A stretch of 64,000 bases of DNA, from the NCBI GenBank assembly GCA_964106915.2, contig OZ066914.1; one strand, 5' to 3'. Positions 37,600 to 57,445 of the stretch are shown piece after piece (positions within the stretch are counted from its first letter, which is position 1; the number at the start of each line of letters is the position of its first letter). A model generated the notes under the pieces. It ran no database searches, was not told the DNA's origin, and saw only the letters and a list, made by a program, of their open reading frames with translations. The position numbers were made by a program, and so were the translations under genes. This DNA comes from Podarcis gaigeae. Lineage: Eukaryota.

Positions 37600-38620
37600 G
37601 TGGCGAGCGACCTTGAGTGTGTACCGCACTTTATTCCCATCCAATACCCGTTAAGGAGGAGGGGTGAGCCAGGAGGGCTCCTTTCAAAACAAGGGGAAAC
37701 GCTCGAAAGTTATCACCCGCCAACATAAAAGGGGAAGACACAAACACACTTGCGCAGGAGGGAAAAGGCGTGCGCGAGTTTGACGAAGTGGGGAGAAGAA
37801 GCGAAGGCAGCCGAGAACTGCTGGGGCTGAACAGAGGCCTAGCAGGGGAAGGCACCGGCCGGACTGAGCGGAGGGAGCAAGAGAGGAAAACGGGGGCTGG
37901 CTGCCAAGGCCACCACTGGAGAATTCCGAGCCAAGGGGCACCGGCGCGGCGGAGGGCGGGTAGACTCACCTGCCCACGCGCCCAGGTGCGGGCCCACCGC
38001 CGCCGGGTTGCCCAGCACCCACAGGCGGACGGCATAAACTACGCGCTGAAGCTGCAGCCACACGAAGTAGGCGACGCTCGACACCCCGACCCAGTAGAAG
38101 AGGCCGGCGTAGGAAGACAAGAAAGAATCTGAGGCCCCCATAGCGCCGCCGCAGCTCCTGCGACCACAGCGACGAGACGGCTGAGGCGAGAATGAGCCCG
38201 CCCGGTTTCCGCCGGGCCTGTCCCATGGAACAGCCCCGCCCCCGCGGCGTAGCCATTGGCTGGCCGCTTCCCCCGCGCGCCCTCCCATTGGACGTTTTGC
38301 AGCTCGCGGGGAGTTCACGCTCGCAGAGGCCTACTCAAGTCATTCTTTCTCCCCGAAACCGCCCTCTTCCACACAGAGGAGCCTGTCCCTTCGCGCGTGC
38401 GCACTCAGGGGTGGAGTGGGGTGGAGCTTATTCCTTTGCCTCTTATTGGCCGAGGCCGCCTTCATTCATGTGGTGGCCACGCAGTGAACAGGTGGGCGGT
38501 TTTTTCCCCGGCCGGTAAATTGAAGGCGGGGAGCAATCGGGCGGCTCGCGCGTGGAGTCCAACGTCCACGCTCAAGGCCGGCCCACCCATGAGGCAAAGG
38601 TGAGGCGACTGCATCGGGAA
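37600..38620 (-). promoter_or_regulatory. CpG-island promoter of HSD17B12 with GC box, CCAAT boxes and an SRE-like site
   Basis: Sharp rise in GC and CpG. GC box 38234-38243. CCAAT (minus strand) at 38255-38259, 38287-38291 and 38445-38449. TCCACCCCAC (minus) at 38416-38425. Confidence 0.85.
37970..38141 (-). CDS. HSD17B12: HSD17B12 coding exon 1 (MGASDSFLSSYAGLFYWVGVSSVAYFVWLQLQRVVYAVRLWVLGNPAAVGPHLGAWA + 1 nt)
   Basis: ATG at 38141 in GCTATGG context inside a CpG island. Hydrophobic N-terminal anchor followed by GNPAAVGPHLGAWA, resembling human GNEAGVGPGLGEWA. Donor G|GTGAGT, phase 1, which joins exon 2 in frame. Confidence 0.95.
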
Positions 38621-47532: not shown

Positions 47533-48304
47533 TATTTTTACACAAATTGTGCAAACACTGGTCTGAATGCATTATGGTTGAGAGTGGGGCTGGACGTCAT
47601 GCAAAACCTGAGCAGTTGCACTATGCTACGGCTCCTGTAACCCATATGTCACTGTATAGGTTTACTGCTTGATGGAAGACAAATGTTCCATATGCCTGAT
47701 TTCTATCTGCTGCTGTGGCTGAGTGGGTAAGAAACTGCTCTGTGGGCTGAAATATCTTCAGATTTATTTACAGACCATTCTCAACTTACACAGGGGTTAC
47801 GTTCTGGGGATAGTGCATAAAGCCAAAACAGCATATCGTCAAAATATGGTGGGTGGGATTACCAAAGTCTCCCCCCAGACAATCACCCCCTTTCTAACTT
47901 GTTTTGCCAACCATGTAAAGCTGAATGCACTAAAGTTAAATGTGCATAAGCTGCAAGTTACCCGTATTTTTAAAGTAAAAAATGGCACAAGGCCCTTACA
48001 TCCCTAACCATCATGGCCCCCTGGTGCTGGATAGAGGCTAACAGAAGTACAGAAGTAAGCAGATTCTTTAATTTTTTGTATGTGTTATTACCTCAAAAAG
48101 CCCTTAAGGGTTTGACTGAATGTAAAAAGTAGCATTTCTGAATTTTTCAAATAATTTATCCATATATTTAACAATTGTTAGAATTTTCCTAAAATAATGA
48201 ATTTATACAATATTCAGTGTGTCTTGATGTACTTCACATTTTAATTCCATTCCAATATAATACAAAAGGTATCCAATTGTTTACCCGTGTGGATTTTTAT
48301 CCGT

Positions 48305-48996
48305 GTGAAGTTGAATCCTGACAAGACAGAAGTACTGTTTTTGGGGGACAGGGGGCGGGCTGGTGTGGAGGACTCCCTGGTCCTGAATAGGGTAACTGTG
48401 CCCCTGAAGGACCAGGTGTGCAGCCTAGGAGTCATTTTGGATCCACAGCTGTCCATGGAGGCGCAGGTCAATTCTGTATCCAGGGCAGCTGTCTACCAAC
48501 TCCAACTGGTACGCAGGCTGAGACCCTACCTGCCCGCGGACTGTCTCGCCAGAGTGGTGCATGCTCTAGTTATCTCCCGCTTGGACTACTGCAATGTGCT
48601 CTACGTGGGGCTACCTTTGAAGGTGACTCAGAAACTACAACTAATCCAGAATGCGGCAGCTAGACTGGTGACTAGGGGTGGCCGCCGAGACCACATAACA
48701 CCGGTCTTGAAAGACCTACATTGGCTCCCAGTACGTTTCCGAGCACAATTCAAAGTGCTGGTGTTGACCTTTAAAGCCCTAAACGGCCTCTGCCCAGTAT
48801 ACCTGAAGGAGCATCTCCACCCCCATCGTTCTGCCTGGACGCTGAGGTCCAGCGCCGAGGGCCTTCTGGCGGTTCCCTCATTGCGAGAAGCAAAGCTACA
48901 GGGAACCAGGCAGAGGGCCTTCTCGGTAGTGGCGCCTGCCCTGTGGAACGCCCTCCCATAAATGTCAAAGCGATAAATAACTACCTGACATTCAGA
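48305..48996 (+). mobile_element. L2 LINE ORF2 C-terminal fragment
   Basis: ORF 48287..48961: KLNPDKTEVL, SRLDYCN, QNAAARL, LHWLPVRFRAQFKVL, LWNALP. Confidence 0.92.
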
Positions 48997-48998
48997 AC

Positions 48999-49100
48999 AA
49001 AAAAAAAATTCCTTCCAGTAGCACCTTAAAGACCAACTAAGTCAGTTCTTGGTATGAGCTTTCGTGTGCATGCACACTTCTTCAGATATTCTTCAGATAC
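48999..49100 (-). mobile_element. Penelope-like element terminal-repeat fragment
   Basis: TCCAGTAGCACCTTAAAGACCAACTAAG..GAGCTTTCGTG..CACTTCTTCAGAT resembles reptile Penelope-like termini as I recall them; contains a hammerhead core on the minus strand. Confidence 0.7.
49052..49088 (-). ncRNA. Minimal type I hammerhead ribozyme motif
   Basis: Minus strand reads UAU-CUGAAGA-A-GUGUG(CAUG)CACAC-GAAA-GC-UC^AUAC: both core boxes, a perfect 5-bp stem II, a palindromic AGCU minimal stem III and a short stem I. Confidence 0.7.

Positions 49101-49162: not shown

Positions 49163-49208
<46 letters not shown>
49163..49208. repeat. (TTAG)n microsatellite
   Basis: About 11 tandem AGTT units. Confidence 0.95.
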
Positions 49209-50802
49209 TGATGTATACTGTCATCAATTTAGTTTGGTTCTTTATATCAGCTGTTATTATATGAACACATTTAAATGGCATTGGCCAATTTTCTCCAATT
49301 TTTTAATGTGTCTCATCTGCAGAAGGGTTTGCAATTTCCTTTCTATGGAGGATGAACAAATTCCCTCTCTTCTAAAGCTTTCCAAGTTCTTTGGCAACTT
49401 GCAAATGCTATGTTGATAATGTAGCCTTATGTTTCAGATAAAGTGGGATCCAGCATGCATAATTATATGGTCAAATGCAAAAACAAAAAACGGTATATGT
49501 GTGAGAGAGTTACATTAACGCATCCAGATACACAAAGAAACATTCTCACAGAAAGTGCATGTAGACTTATGCCAAGCACAGTATTTTTGCCATCACAATT
49601 GCCCAGTATTGAAACCAATGGCTACTATGTCTTCGGTCTTCAAAACATGCTTGAAACCTCAAAGTAGCTAATTTCCTGTTTCTTAAAGTTACCATAGGCA
49701 GGGTGCAACAGCATGTATAAAATTGCCACTGGGATTTAGGGTGGTATTCTTATGCATGCTACATGGGCTGTTTGGGAAAATAAGCTTGCATTTCCTACTG
49801 TTGCTATTCCTTGTACCAAGGCCTGGGTCCAACCACCTTCCCAACCATGATCACAAATTCATCTTCATACTTCCTAGGCAACGTCCATCTAATCTAAGCT
49901 GGTGTTTGTCTCAACTTCAGATATACAGCAATACTTTTCAATGTATTCGTTGTGTATCAGATCATAGCTACTGTGTGGGCCTTATGATGAAACTATTGAA
50001 GAATGGCAGTACACTTGGGACTCTCTATCACGTGAAATTTCAAGAATGTGTCTTGTACCTGCCACTCCTCCCCCACTTTTTGTCCAAATTCGTCCTGTTC
50101 ATAGATGTTACACATTAAGGGGACAAAGATAAGTCTTTGACATTAGAGGCAACCTGTCTACGAGGCCTTTCTTACAGGGTTGTGCAGGCAACATCAGTCC
50201 AATTGGAACAGACATCTCCCAAGCAGCATGTGTATCCATGTGTTTGTGACTGTTGCACCTGTTCATTCGTTTGGTTGTTGATGCTGTGGCCTCCTAAAAC
50301 CACGTTAGCTAGAACCAGCTAACCATCCACATCACAAATGCAGGTTACAACAGAGTCTCTTTGGAAATGGACCCAAGACTTCACAGTCCCATTAGAATAC
50401 CCATAACAACAAACTCATACATGTAACTGAACAGCGTTTCTGCCTAAGAACATGACAGAAATGAAACTGGATGGACCGACCTCAATAAACAAAACAATTC
50501 AGAGGTAGCACACAGCCAGTTACATGGTAGAGAAATCCAGGCATGAAGAGTCCATGAATAAAGGCAGGATAAACAAATCATGCCTCCCTAACTTGCTCTG
50601 ATCTGCTCCCTTGTGGCTGTGGGAAAGAATGTCAGAAGTGCAACAAGGCTAACCTTCCATGCACTGCTCTGTGCTCTGATGAGAAAGCTCCAGCAACAAT
50701 CTTACTCAGAAGAGATGTTCATTAAATCAAAAACTATCCACTTTTTAACAGCCCATGGCCCAATTTCCGCTTGATTTCTAAGCAATTTTGTATGTGGCTA
50801 AC

Positions 50803-51445
50803 ATGTTGTTGTTTAGTCATTTAGTCGTGTGGCTCTTCGTGATCCTATGGACCAGAGCATGCCAGGCACTTCTGTCTTCCACTGCCTCCCGCAGTTTGGT
50901 CAAACTCATGCTAGTAGCTTCAAGAACACTGTCCAACCATCTCGTCCCCTGTCGTCTCCTTCTCCTTGTGCCCTCATTCTTTCCCAACATCAGGGTCTTT
51001 TCCAGGGCGTCTTCTCTTCTCATGAGGTGGCCAAAGTATTGGAGCCTCAGCTTCACGATCTGTCCTTCCAGTGAGCACTCAGGGCTGATTTCCTTAAGAA
51101 TGGAGAGGTTTGATTTTCTTGCAGTCCATGGGACTCTCAAGAGTCTCCTCCAACACCATAATTCAAAAGCATCAATTCTTCGGCGATCAGCCTTCTTTAT
51201 GGTCCAGCTCTCACTTCCATACATCACTACTGGGAAAACCATAGCTTTAACTATACGGACCTTTGTTGGCAAGGTGATGTCTCTGCTTTTAAAGATGCTG
51301 TCTAGGTTTGTCATTGCTTTCCTCCCAAGAAGCAGGCGTCTTTTAATTTCGTGACTGCTGTCACCATCTGCAGTGATCATGGAGCCCAAGAAAGTAAAAT
51401 CTCTCACTGCCTCCATTTCTTCCCCTTCTATTTGCCAGGAGATGA
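50803..51445 (-). mobile_element. 5'-truncated BovB-like RTE LINE
   Basis: ORF 50817..51416: FLGSMITADGDSSHEIKRRLLLGRKAMTNLDSIFKSRDITLPTKVRIVKAMVFPVVMYGSESWT..AFELWCWRRLLRVPW; (CAA)n tail. Confidence 0.95.
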
Positions 51446-52404
51446 TGAAGTTGTTCCTTTTTACTCTAGTTGAATTTGCTTATCTGTGATGCATTTTAAG
51501 ATCAAGGTATAAAAGAAAGAGCATCCATATAATGTGACCTGATGGTAGGCCTAAAACTGGGCAGATTTCACCTCTGGTCAGCTGCAATTTTAATAGTGAT
51601 TGATTTCTATTGGGCAGCATTTCCCAATCCTGAAAGCCCTTTGATAGCGGAAGCCACATCCAAGTGAGGAGGAATAAAGCTCCAGTAAATAACATTTATC
51701 ACTAGAACCTAAATTTGTTAGCAGCGTAAGTTTGATTCAACAAGGACTTGATCGTGTATTCTGCACCGCACAGGATGTGCTTGATGAATAACCAATTTTA
51801 CTTTCTCACTTTACATATTCTAGGAGAAAATAACTCTTAACTATTGGTGGTCACATACAAAAATCTGATGAAGCACAGCATTTAAGAATCCCTGCCTTTT
51901 GCTTGTGCTCACAATCCAGTGTCTGAACCCACACTTCCTGGATTTCATAGTCACATTTTTGTCTATTTGAAACACGAAACAGTACCCACCTCTTGAATCA
52001 CAATCTCTGATTTTGCAAGCAACAGTGACTTGTCTCTCCCCTGAGGTATCCTCAAAGTTGTTGTTGTTGGTTTTTTTAAAAAAGACTTTCTGCCAGTGTT
52101 GAGATAGGCAGAGACAAACCCACATCATCATGGATCCCAATTTTCCCTACAGAGAAGGAACTTATCATGGTTAAGTAGCAACATTCACTCCTCCAATCTG
52201 TTAAGGTCATTTTGAATTCTGAGTCTGTCTTCTGCGGCCACCAGGAAAAGGACCTTCCAGCTCAAAAACCCTAGGGGGACAGAGTGCAGCTGCGTGAAGA
52301 GATGTCCTGTGAGTGCCTTCAGTACCCTGTGGAGGTTCCAAGAGGGGAACCTGTGTACCATGGGTGGTTTTAGCTGCGCTGCTCCCTTCAGAAAGCGTCT
52401 TACC

Positions 52405-52626: not shown

Positions 52627-55153
52627 CAGAAAGCGTCTTACCAGGGAGAGGGACCCCAGAGGAGTTCCTGCTGATCTGAGAACTGATCCCAAGGCTGCCA
52701 CCTGCCTGCGGAGGGTGTTTGGTCGTAGCCCATTCCAAGCCCTCCTGTAGGAAAGCTAGAATGTCTGGTACCTGTCCTTCTAGGGGATCCAACTTATTTC
52801 TACGTGCCCACCTGACAAAGACCCGCCAGGTGAATTTGTAGATTCGCTGAGTGGACTCTGCCAGAAGCTAGGATGGTGGAGGTTACTAGTCAGTCAACCC
52901 CAACTTCCTTAGGCATTCCCTCTCAACAGCTAAGCATGAAGTTGTAGCCAATCTGAGTCTGGGTGGTGGACCTCTCCCGACAACAGACTGCTCCTTTGAG
53001 GTAGGGGCCAAGGGTCTGTTACTGATGAGGCCCTCAGATCTGCAAATCAAGGCCTCCTTGGCCAAAAGGGAGCCACAACAATGATCTCTCCAGGCTGGAC
53101 CTGACCCACCTGAGCAGTCTCTGGATCAGGGCCATTGGAGGGAAGACATATAGAAGTCCCCCTGGCCGCTGGTCAAGGCATCCATGCCCATTGCTCCCCT
53201 CATCATGAACCGGGAGAAGAGCCCCACCTTTCAGTTCTCTGAACTTGCAAACAGGTCCACCCTAGGGAAGCCGAAGCGGTCCACTATTTGTTGGAACACC
53301 TGTGGATGAAGGCTCCATTCTGCTTGAGATACCTGGTGATGGAGCACAATACGTGCTCTGCCAATAGGGATTCTAGATGTCGTTCTGCCCAAGACAGGAG
53401 AATGGTGGCCTCCTACATGAGGGCCTGGGATCTGGCCCTCCATGCATATATATGATTTGGTAGCCAGGTTGTCTGAATGCATCAGCACGTTTCCCCTCCA
53501 CCAACTTCTTGAAGCAGAGGAGGGCCAGTCTGACTGCTCTGAGCTCCAAACAGTTTATCGGTTGGTATGCTTTCTCCTTGGACCAGGTCTCTTGGGCATA
53601 ATGATCACCTGTGTGTGTTCCCCACCCCGAAAGACTTGTGTCCGTGGTTATCTGGACCTGTGGCTGCTCCCTGAAAGAACACCCCTTCTCTAAAACTGGG
53701 GAAAGCCAGCTCTAGGGACCTCCTGGTCTCCCTGCTCAACTGCAGCCTGACATGCCTCCGCTGTATGATGTCCATCTGATAGGGATGGAGAGCCCACTGC
53801 AGGGGTCTGGCATGAAATCACGCCCATGGCACACAGGTCATGGAGGCGATCGTGTGCCCCTGCAGTTTGGCCAGCTGGAAGGTGTCTGCCCTCTTTGCCC
53901 CCAGGACCTGGCGGACCGAGGTCCGAATCTTGTCCACACGCTCTGAGGAGAGGCTCACCAAGCCCTGCTTGGTGTCTTTCAAGTTTCCTAGGGTAACATG
54001 ACCTGCACTGGAAACAGCTTGCTTTTCTCCATGTTCACTAAGAATCTGTGCTGCTGCAGGCAGTCTAGGGTCTCTGCTACATCGCTCCTGGCTTGATGGA
54101 GTGAGTCTGACCTGATCAGAATATTGCCCAAGTATGGAAAAAGATGAATGGCCTTCTTCTGTAGATGGACCACCAGTTATCAACACCTTTGAAAACATTC
54201 TCGGACTTTGGGCCAAGCCAAAAGCCAAACAGGTGTACTGATAATGATTTTTCTGGAATGCAAAATGCAGAAACTGGTTATGTCCTGGGTAAACTAGGCT
54301 GTGGAGGTAAGCATCCATCAGGTCTAGAGAAGCCATGAAGTCTCCAGGCCTGAGACCCTTTAGAATGGTCTTCAAGGTTTCCATTCTGAATTTATTTCAG
54401 GTCAGGTACTGATAGACCCTCTTGAGATCTAGAATGACCCTTCATTTTCCTGATTGCTTTCGGACCATAAAGAGACTAGAGTAGCAGCCAAATCCCTGCT
54501 GTGGTTTTGGCACAGGCTCTATCGCTCTGATCTCCAGTGGATGCTGGATTGCTTGAAGCATGGGGAGGTGTTTCTGTGTTTTTTTGGAGCATGGGGAGGA
54601 AATGAATTTGGCGGGGGGGGGGGGGACTGGTCAAACTCTATCTTGTAACTCTCCTGGATAATGCTGAGCACCCACTGTTCTGTGATCAAGGCTTCCCGCT
54701 GCCGCCGCCTCTTGCCTCCCCTGTAATTGCTGCCTTGAGGCTGCTTGAGGGAGCTCTGGCTACATGAGGATCTATTTGGGAAACCCTGCCCTCCCCAGGA
54801 GGGTTTGTAGCTCTTGAAATCTCTAGCGCTGAATAAGCCCCTGTTGGAACGAAAGGAAGAATAATTTCCCTTCCCTTCCTGTGCACTGACACGACTGCTG
54901 CCACGGCCCTTGCTGCAAATTGCAAGGCATCCGGCTGGACATGGACAAACCCTGGTGGGACCTCTGAAAGGCCTGAGCCCAGATGAAGGAAGCTGCAGCT
55001 GAGACCTTAATGCCTAGTGTGACCTGTATAACAGAACCTCTGCCCTTTTGTACTCAGGGTTCCTGGGGTAATCCTGCCATCCTGGATCCATGAGTAAGGG
55101 AACATACGGGGGGCATCTCAGAAATCCCACTCTATACTTATCAAATGGATATC

Positions 55154-55393
55154 CAGTGGTACCTCAGGTTACATACGCTTCAGGTTACATACACTTCAAG
55201 TTACAGATTCCGCTAACCCAGAAATAGTGCTTCAGGTTAAGAACTCTGCTTCAGGATGAACAGAAATCGTGCTCTGGCAGTGCAGCGGCAGCAGAAGGCC
55301 CCATGAGCTAAAGTGGTGCTTCAGGTTAAGAACAGTTTCAGGTTAAGAACGGACCTCTGGAACAAATTAAGTACTTAACCCAAGGTACCTCTG
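55154..55393. mobile_element. CAGTGGTACC-family MITE nested in DIRS gag region
   Basis: TIRs CAGTGGTACCT...AGGTACCTCTG followed by TA. Confidence 0.9.
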
Positions 55394-56695
55394 TAGCCAA
55401 TTTACGAGAGAGTTTGTTGCCTTGGAGGCCCCAGATGTCTGCCATTCCTGCAAGATGCTCTCAAACTCTACTGGAAAGGGGAAAGCCCTCTTGGGGGCCT
55501 TGCGCTTGGGGGAGGTCTTGGAGGCATTGCTGGCTGCCTGGGGTTGCTTCTTGGCTTGCCGGGCTTCCTCAGGGAGAATGACTGCCTTCACAGCCTTTCC
55601 CAAGAGCTGCTTGATGTCTGGGCTCATAAAGAGGGGGGGGATGCTCCCCCTCCTCCTCATCTGGGGAAAGCTCACCCTCCTCCCTGTCTGAAGAGGTGCA
55701 TGTAAGCCTGGATGATGAAGGCTTGAGGGCATGAGGCATCCTCTGAACTGGCTGCCCATGGGGAAAGGGAAGGTTCAGTTCTCCTGTAGGTCCTTCTGCC
55801 AGGGCCCCTTTCTCCCTGCTCAGCACCCAGCATCACTTGTGCTGGGGCCCCTTTGAGGGGACAAGGAGCTGCTCCAAGAAGAGTAGTATTCTGAGGGGGA
55901 AGGGGAGGGATCAGCTCTCCTCCTCCTGGCACCCTGCCAGTTCCCAGCCCTGCTTGAACCATGGGTGCTTTCCTGAGGCCCACCCCCTAGTGCTGCCCTT
56001 GGCTGAAGGGACCCTGATGGGTCTGTGGCAAGTGGGGATGGGGGTGGAGCATGGAAGCCGCAGGTAGGCCCAAAGCCTGTCCTAGCCAGGCAATCCACTC
56101 ATGGGTAACTGGAGGCCCAACTCCCCTTCTTACCAGAACCTCCAGAATTGCTGGAGCTGATGGATCAGGCCTTTGCAGGTCGCCCAAAACTTCCTCAGCC
56201 TGGGCTGCTGCTAAATTCAAGGGAATTCCAGGCCCCTTTGCGCAGGCAGCTTGGGTTCCCACAGATCCTGCTGATGAATTCGGAGAAAGCTCCATCTCAC
56301 AGAAAAGAAAGTCTCCTCCTGAGAAGGAAAACCCCTTCTGCTGGGTTTCAGTCCTTTCCTTTTTTGTTTTCAATGCATGATTTTGGGTTTCAGTCCTTTC
56401 CTAGCCTTCCTTCCCAGGTCCAGAGGCCTCCAAAGACTGTAGGCCCAAAGGGAGGCCTAGTCAAAAGTACGGTAGATCCGAGAGAAGAAAAACCTGGTAT
56501 GGATAACAGAAGGGAGCTGAAAGAGTGGATCCAAGAAATGAAGATAAAGAAAGAACAAAGGAAAGAAAAATCCCTTCCAAGATGGCATTCCCATCTTTTT
56601 CTTTTACCGGGCCTAGAGCAGGTAAGAGACCTCCTACCAGCGGTGAAGGCAGGAAATGGAACTGGAGCAAGAGGCTTGTCTCTTGTAACTATGAT

Positions 56696-57445
56696 GCAGA
56701 AGACAGACTCAGAATTCAAAATGGCCTTAACAAATTGAAGAACGGGGCCAAAACAAAATGAATCTCAGTAGGGACAAATGTAAGGTTCTACACTTTAGGC
56801 AGGAATAACCAGGTGCAAAAACGTAAGATGGAGGACACCGGGCTTGCCAGTAGTACATGTGAAACAGATCTAGAGGTCTTAGTAGACCACAAGCTTAACA
56901 TGAGTCAGCAATGTGGTGCATCAACAGAAAAGCTCATACTATTCTAGGCTGCATCAACAGAAGCAGAGTGTCCCAAATCAAAGGAAGTAATAGTACAGTA
57001 CTGCTCTATTCTGGCTTGTGAGACCATACTTAGAGTACTGTGTCCAGTTCTGGAGCCATAATTTAAGAAGTATATTGACAAGCTGGAGCATGTACAGAGG
57101 GCAACCAAGATGATCAAGGGTCTGGAAACCAAGCCTTATGAGGAATGATTGAGGTTGCTGGGTAAGCCTGGATAAGAGGAAACTGAGAGGAGGTATGATA
57201 GCCATTCCTCATGGAATATGGAGTAAGCTTATTTTCTCCTGCTCCAGAGGTTAGGACCCAAATCATGGCTAGGACCCTAACCAATGGACTCTCTTGGAAG
57301 GTGGTAGATAGACTCTCCTTTCTTGGGAGGTTAAAAGCAGTGGTTACATGGCCATCTGTCATGGACACTTTAGTTGAGATTCCTACATTGCAAGGGGTTG
57401 GACTGAATAACCCTAGGGGTCCCTTCCAACTCTACAATTCTATGG
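56696..57445 (+). mobile_element. 5'-truncated CR1 LINE
   Basis: Begins in RT (EDRLRIQNGLNKL); LGCINRS-like and GAGTACTGTGTCCAGTTCTGG blocks; tail GGTCCCTTCCAACTCTACAATTCTATG. Confidence 0.88.

Follow-up and report, generated by a model that had tools for sequence, protein, structure and literature searches.

The window analysed here, a 64,000-nucleotide stretch of Podarcis gaigeae DNA, carries a ~100-bp stub that is very probably a dead end of a very abundant Penelope-like element (PLE) of the Neptune type, whose reverse transcriptase (RT) most likely copied the first ~95 nt of an uncut RNA onto one nicked strand of an L2 element. The hammerhead ribozyme in this stub is in every testable feature a minimal type I hammerhead of the kind found in PLE pLTRs; its cleavage is predicted, and as a lone copy it is predicted to be inactive. 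The window copy itself matters little; the family, with more than 11,000 identical ribozymes and intact full-length copies, is a large natural record of the sites at which a PLE RT of the Neptune clade starts and stops.

Anatomy of the hammerhead motif

Read on the minus strand, the motif (49052 to 49088) opens with the 5' strand of stem I (UAU, 49088-49086) and continues through the CUGAAGA box (49085-49079), an extra A after A9 (49078), stem II (GUGUG, 49077-49073, and CACAC, 49068-49064, separated by a CAUG loop) and the GAAA box (49063-49060) to GCUC, in which C17 is 49056, with the predicted cut at 49056/49055 and AUAC on its 3' side. Both the CUGANGA and the GAAA box are present, the NUH triplet is CUC and the G10.1-C11.1 pair is G49077-C49064; this pair and a nucleotide after A9 are among the features that PMC4209133 lists for PLE minimal hammerheads, and the whole motif fits the metazoan minimal hammerhead consensus in its supplementary Figure S3. 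The AGCU palindrome at 49057 to 49060 (A15.1-G-C-U16.1) makes a stem III without a loop, which pairs only in a dimer, as set out in the main text of the same paper.

The first-pass annotation had read a minus-strand hammerhead with these boxes, stems and cut site, and had singled out the loop-less palindromic AGCU. Both readings stand on the sequence, and the first also on a minimal-hammerhead descriptor that matched the window once and none of 100 shuffles (2-mer blocks shuffled). An Rfam scan of the window, in contrast, contained no hammerhead among its matches at E <= 10, a miss that we take as a limit of the model and not as a refutation. The window monomer folds with an energy no better than that of shuffles (z -0.1 to -0.8), an uninformative result and the one to be expected if a core has no monomeric stem III; its MFE structure contains stem II alone.

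The parent element and its genome-wide family

The 30-nt ribozyme core is present in 11,465 exact copies in the 1.5-Gb genome (0 for the control), a density of about one exact copy per 130 kb, and the element tail, which the window copy lacks, gave 8,075 matches genome-wide. Longer family copies carry a GIY-YIG domain just upstream, and a protein search then led to full-length copies. In one of these, L143, the order is TATA box, hammerhead, tail, 910-aa ORF, TATA box and hammerhead, which is a pLTR-ORF-pLTR arrangement with the hammerhead in both pLTRs. The L143 ORF matches RVT_1 (E 9.7e-12) and, at its C-terminus, GIY-YIG (E 8e-6), and features a DKG motif and a CX4CXXC linker (CNKPRCQLC, aa 770-778) between the RT and the endonuclease (EN); a PDB search with the element ORF gave no match. 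The endonuclease CxxC reads KCQQR in L143, where one of the two cysteines is R, and KCQQC in L083 and L073. A CX2-5CXXC linker at this position marks Neptune and Nematis elements (PMC8557442). From its sequence the parent element would be Neptune-type, the choice between Neptune and Nematis resting on the unreduced linker and the vertebrate host.

With the ribozyme C3 taken as position 0 of the element, the window stub is a tail-less arm of such a pLTR (48998 to 49088, minus strand), spanning -3 to about +87 and matching the 5' pLTR of L143 at 97.8% over 90 nt by blastn; from C3 to the T tract the two are identical at 78/78 positions, and the arm ends just before the position of the ATG of the element ORF. 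The Penelope-like terminal fragment proposed in the first-pass annotation is thereby matched to the pLTR of a full-length RT/GIY-YIG element, and its assignment of the motif to the minimal type I hammerheads of PLEs holds as well, with the consensus features present and the motif located in a PLE pLTR. A tblastn search found no RT or GIY-YIG coding sequence in the stub.

Within the element, the hammerhead is preceded by a TATA box at -37 and an Inr-like TCAGT whose A is at -7, and is followed by the ORF ATG at about +92, such that the main ORF starts about 60 nt past the predicted cut. A minus-strand ATG in loop II opens a frame of only 9 codons (window 49071-49042) upstream of this main ORF, and a cut at +30 would take away both the cap and the loop-II ATG of the PLE RNA.

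The full-length copies L141, L142 and L143 are intact or nearly so (open frames of 921-966 aa), which makes the family a young one that may still be active. A literature search for a lacertid or gecko Neptune family gave no matching title and no name for this family, which may already be named in Dfam or Repbase. An older subfamily copy, ~78% identical (L061:6350-6740), has a decayed GAAA box and a young two-armed stub inserted in it; this locus was rejected as a tandem unit, since the two proved to be separate insertions. The genome also contains a second, unrelated family of PLE-type minimal hammerheads (CUGAAGA U GACGAG UGAGAC CUCGUC GAAA CG UC), with 6,915 pattern matches genome-wide versus 355 for a control. 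This family is mostly one sequence among the 100 matches listed, and its copies (L151-L160) are inverted pairs, for example at L159:1400-1680, L159 lying in an (AT)n tract.

The stub, its duplication and its target

The stub adjoins the 3' part of a LINE that we take to be L2-like (48245 to 48997, plus strand), the insertion target, for which a Pfam search gave no match. This fragment stops at 48997, while other copies of the repeat continue for ~130 bp (GACATCT...), in agreement with the loss of the L2 3' end at the stub claimed in the first-pass annotation. Neither the missing L2 end nor a partner arm nor a target duplication was found near the stub, and no second ribozyme was found within the window. 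An independent insertion, L081, lies at the matching position in a different L2 copy and has retained its two arms, a 13-bp duplication and the L2 end; because the window has none of the three, the comparison points to their loss from the window by deletion during or after insertion. For an empty allele of the locus, DNA contigs of three relatives were searched, and none bridged it.

The element has entered the 3' end of this L2-like family in several independent events, at window 48997/48998, at L081:903 and in L044, L074 and L116. Two of them (window and L081) lie at the identical base, after ...TAGAA, and this target resembles an internal start site of the element, so the L2-like 3' end is a possible hot spot for microhomology-guided insertion. 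To the right of the stub, a (TTAG)n microsatellite lies 60 bp away (49163-49208), and broken minus-strand reading frames at 50780-51480 and 53200-56800, with no Pfam match, presumably belong to an RTE/BovB-type LINE and a DIRS-type element, which they resemble.

At its other end the window arm carries an 11-nt unit, TTCTTCAGATA, in tandem (49078-49088 and 49089-49099). The extra segment (49089 to 49100, minus strand; GTATCTGAAGAA) reads as a slippage copy of element -4 to +7, and the duplication shortens stem I of the window copy from 4 to 3 bp, as first described; the 4-bp stem I GUAU/AUAC is kept in 89 of 110 family arms. Of 75 short arms, 15 carry a similar same-sense repeat (some entries are two arms or duplicates of a single insertion), and the duplication is a routine junction scar and not a special feature of this copy.

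Arm ends and junctions across the family

Junctions were sampled from the first 90 of the 8,075 tail matches, all of them in the first 9.6 Mb of one contig, with arm ends taken from BLAST and thus blurred by a few bases. The tail-bearing arms have their 3' end at +121 to +125 in 89/90 cases. An inverted arm is present in 62 of these 90 tail-anchored copies and starts at +82 to +94 in 50 of the 62. The majority of short copies consist of two arms placed back to back and flanked by a target duplication, and a duplication of 10-17 bp was found in 38 of the 49 two-armed copies examined. At the other end of the arms, 66 of 152 ends fall at -12 to -1, which is 5.5 per nt versus 0.42 from +9 to +82 and 0.44 from -39 to -13, while the predicted cut (+30) accounts for 3 of 152.

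Given the TATA box at -37 and the Inr-like TCAGT with its A at -7, the pile at -12 to -1 most likely marks the 5' end of the RNA, at about -7. This placing is based on sequence motifs and DNA junctions; the RNA reads, which are from a relative, have no pile of starts there. The TTTCAG at -11 to -6 (L143:4840-4833, minus strand), a pyrimidine tract followed by CAG, can also be read as a splice acceptor whose end lies one base ahead of stem I, and PMC4209133 describes an intron ending at helix I in the Drosophila virilis Penelope. Since so many ends lie just upstream of the ribozyme and so few at the cut, the distribution suggests that integrated copies came mainly from uncut RNA. Two single-cell RNA runs from a relative contain 7 and 12 reads in which the ORF at ~+186 is fused to the predicted start of the RNA (L143:4834/4642; element -7/-6 next to about +186). 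These reads may stem from a partial tandem in the genome, from a template jump or from a small circular RNA.

In our preferred explanation, the pLTR promoter would start the element RNA at about -7 and the RT would prime internally at two sites, one for each nicked target strand, run to the RNA 5' end and often slip back to recopy a few bases, which would produce the 11-nt duplication in the window; the two cDNA ends would then be joined. The window would have retained only the tail-less arm, its partner, the target duplication and the L2 end having gone during or after insertion. Most integrated copies would derive from uncut RNA, and the ribozyme of the parent element would, according to the literature, cut only as a dimer and/or with the element protein.

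Inverted arms could also arise by fold-back self-priming of one cDNA, or on an antisense template, without priming of both nicked strands, and self-priming on an antisense template is how PMC3846280 explains inverted pLTRs. Perfect hairpins in the lizard family do centre on local palindromes (AGCT for 10 of 34 short ones, stem II for several), but among 42 hairpins not one perfect one was centred on the TTAA palindrome. This origin seems unlikely to us, as each of the two arms has a fixed internal start site of its own, either arm may be the longer, and some copies (L026, L029, L042 and L110) have arms that do not overlap; the anole protein, moreover, extends both strands in vitro (PMC11167929).

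Short copies predominate over long ones, the main arm ending downstream of -40 in 74 of 90 cases, as would be expected if units of ~100-250 bp formed a retrozyme- or MITE-like family, non-autonomous but propagating itself as whole units, with the window copy as a broken member; a 2026 preprint (10.64898/2026.07.22.740005) derives vertebrate retrozymes from pLTRs. Such an origin is nevertheless highly improbable, because arm lengths and junctions vary from copy to copy and grade continuously to full length, and because the short copies have no TATA box. The tandem arrangement raised as a check in the first-pass annotation was not seen: the loci examined contain no head-to-tail array of a fixed unit, their arms are inverted and variable, and the window has a single arm.

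Traces of cleavage and dimer models

In PMC4209133 a minimal hammerhead showed no activity as a monomer and weak activity as a dimer, and the anole hammerhead is described in PMC11167929 as cutting only with protein and as dispensable for insertion. In our models, the stem-III dimer of the window copy reaches -6.9 kcal/mol, versus -12.7 for the natural sequence. Stem II with its loop (49064 to 49077) is a perfect 14-nt palindrome, which had escaped the first-pass annotation and could form an intermolecular duplex. This 14-bp duplex, at -28.0 kcal/mol, is used by the dimer MFE and outcompetes both stem-III dimers in the nearest-neighbour model, which ignores core tertiary contacts.

Traces of cleavage were sought in arms truncated near the site and lacking the GAA box, of which 100 listed of 281 were tallied by hand (a few rows being two arms of one locus or duplicated loci). 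Among these 100, junctions fell at +25 (21), +26 (5), +27 (7), +28 (13), +29 (4), +30 (16), +31 (3), +32 (7), +33 (4), +34 (5), +35 (12) and +36 (3), and ATAC microhomology created by stem I explains 10 of the 16 at +30. A hand tally of 34 short hairpins around the cut site comprised 10 centred on AGCT, one apparent chance case and 23 others. In these 23, +30 is the exact position of 21 of the 46 arm ends, and +29 and +28 have one end each. The two downstream control intervals held 75 and 42 hairpins, compared with 34 at the cut site, with their own microhomology spikes and slippage repeats. Some element templates may have been cut at +30, a hint not clearly above controls. RNA reads from a relative cover the pLTR on both strands, mostly within other transcripts, and show no pile of ends at the cut, 5'-OH ends being poorly represented in such libraries.

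A bolder interpretation treats the stubs as a record of RNA ends, in which the transcript begins exactly at the ribozyme, germ-line cleavage at C17 affects a minority of templates and RNAs are copied two at a time, the palindromic stem II serving as a dimerisation signal that loads two templates on a dimeric RT. If true, the hammerhead fold would have a role beyond cutting, in template dimerisation. We consider this rather improbable, and we have lowered our estimate because the loop of the turtle motif described below is not palindromic.

The HSD17B12 neighbourhood

Coding exon 1 of HSD17B12 (37971 to 38141, minus strand) lies in a CpG island; it has its ATG at 38141 and is 96% identical to HSD17B12 of Podarcis muralis (E 2.7e-26). 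Further exons lie at ~16.5, 14.8 and 8.1 kb; Atlas and Pfam searches did not name exon 1 or the neighbouring repeats. The distance from exon 1 to the motif is 10.9 kb and both are in the same sense, in line with the ~11 kb upstream given in the first-pass annotation. The functional link that it implied is unsupported, as the position is expected by chance and the stub has no promoter, no partner ribozyme and a weak stem I. At the family density of about one exact copy per 130 kb (11,465 in total), finding one 11 kb upstream of a gene, whichever its sense, is expected.

One could still picture a co-opted terminator, in which the hammerhead cuts read-through RNA heading toward the HSD17B12 promoter by forming trans-dimers with other transcribed copies. 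Its orientation and distance, its intact catalytic core and the presence of family fragments in RNA on both strands in a relative would all suit this role. As one of more than 11,000 near-identical young copies, with a shortened stem I and a weakened modelled dimer, the window motif is nevertheless extremely unlikely to act in this way; minimal hammerheads are reported as inactive monomers and weak dimers (PMC4209133), and no read of run X23, which is from a relative that possibly lacks the locus, covers the unique right flank. The window stub thus likely does nothing for the neighbouring HSD17B12.

Comparison with known systems

PLE hammerheads of reptiles have been in print since 2014 (Cervera and De la Pena, PMC4209133), and the window motif is of this already known kind. 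The motif shown there for the turtle Chrysemys picta bellii is like that of the window family in having CUGAAGA followed by A, a 5-bp stem II opening with G-C, GAAA, a loop-less AGCU and a 4-bp stem I. Each of the first two stems differs by one compensatory change, GCAU/AUGC in the turtle versus GUAU/AUAC in the lizard family for stem I and GUGGG/CCCAC versus GUGUG/CACAC for stem II. The lizard loop II is CAUG, which completes the 14-nt palindrome, whereas that of the turtle is GUUUUUA; the lizard motif has C17 where the turtle has U17, and the window copy has only 3 bp of stem I. The stem II covariation looked for after the first pass is thus visible between species, in one comparison made by eye, but not within the lizard genome, where the family is too young to show it among the 100 listed of 13,360 matches.

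The lizard family resembles the Neptune PLEs of PMC8557442 in its single ORF with DKG, RT, CX4CXXC linker and C-terminal GIY-YIG, and in its partial pLTR-ORF-pLTR tandem, inverted truncated arm, optional tail (30-40 bp in that account) and variable target duplication; the arm, tail and duplication are all seen in the lizard family, of which the window copy keeps one arm and no duplication. The EN+ Penelope of Adineta vaga (PMC3846280) likewise has an inverted pLTR, a ~31-bp tail at one end and short duplications, and its pLTR shares the TATA box and Inr-like motif of the lizard one and holds the first ORF codons. It is described there in few copies, compared with thousands of minimal two-armed stubs in the lizard.

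The closest mechanistic parallel is the Poseidon element PAc of Anolis carolinensis, a PLE with a pLTR hammerhead; in vitro, its RT initiates internally at two sites ~35 nt apart, which delimit the tail, and extends both strands from an unprocessed RNA template (Frangieh et al. 2024, PMC11167929). Two internal start sites at about this spacing, extension of both strands, an uncut template and the lack of a read pile at the cut are all shared with the lizard family. PAc belongs to a different clade, since Poseidon elements are described without the linker, and its ORF begins at stem II, whereas the long lizard ORF begins about 60 nt past the cut. Our literature search found no biochemical study of reverse transcription in the Neptune clade. 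The lizard family offers material for testing whether PLE hammerheads ever cut in vivo, and it extends the anole Poseidon result, two internal starts on an uncut template, to another clade of PLEs.
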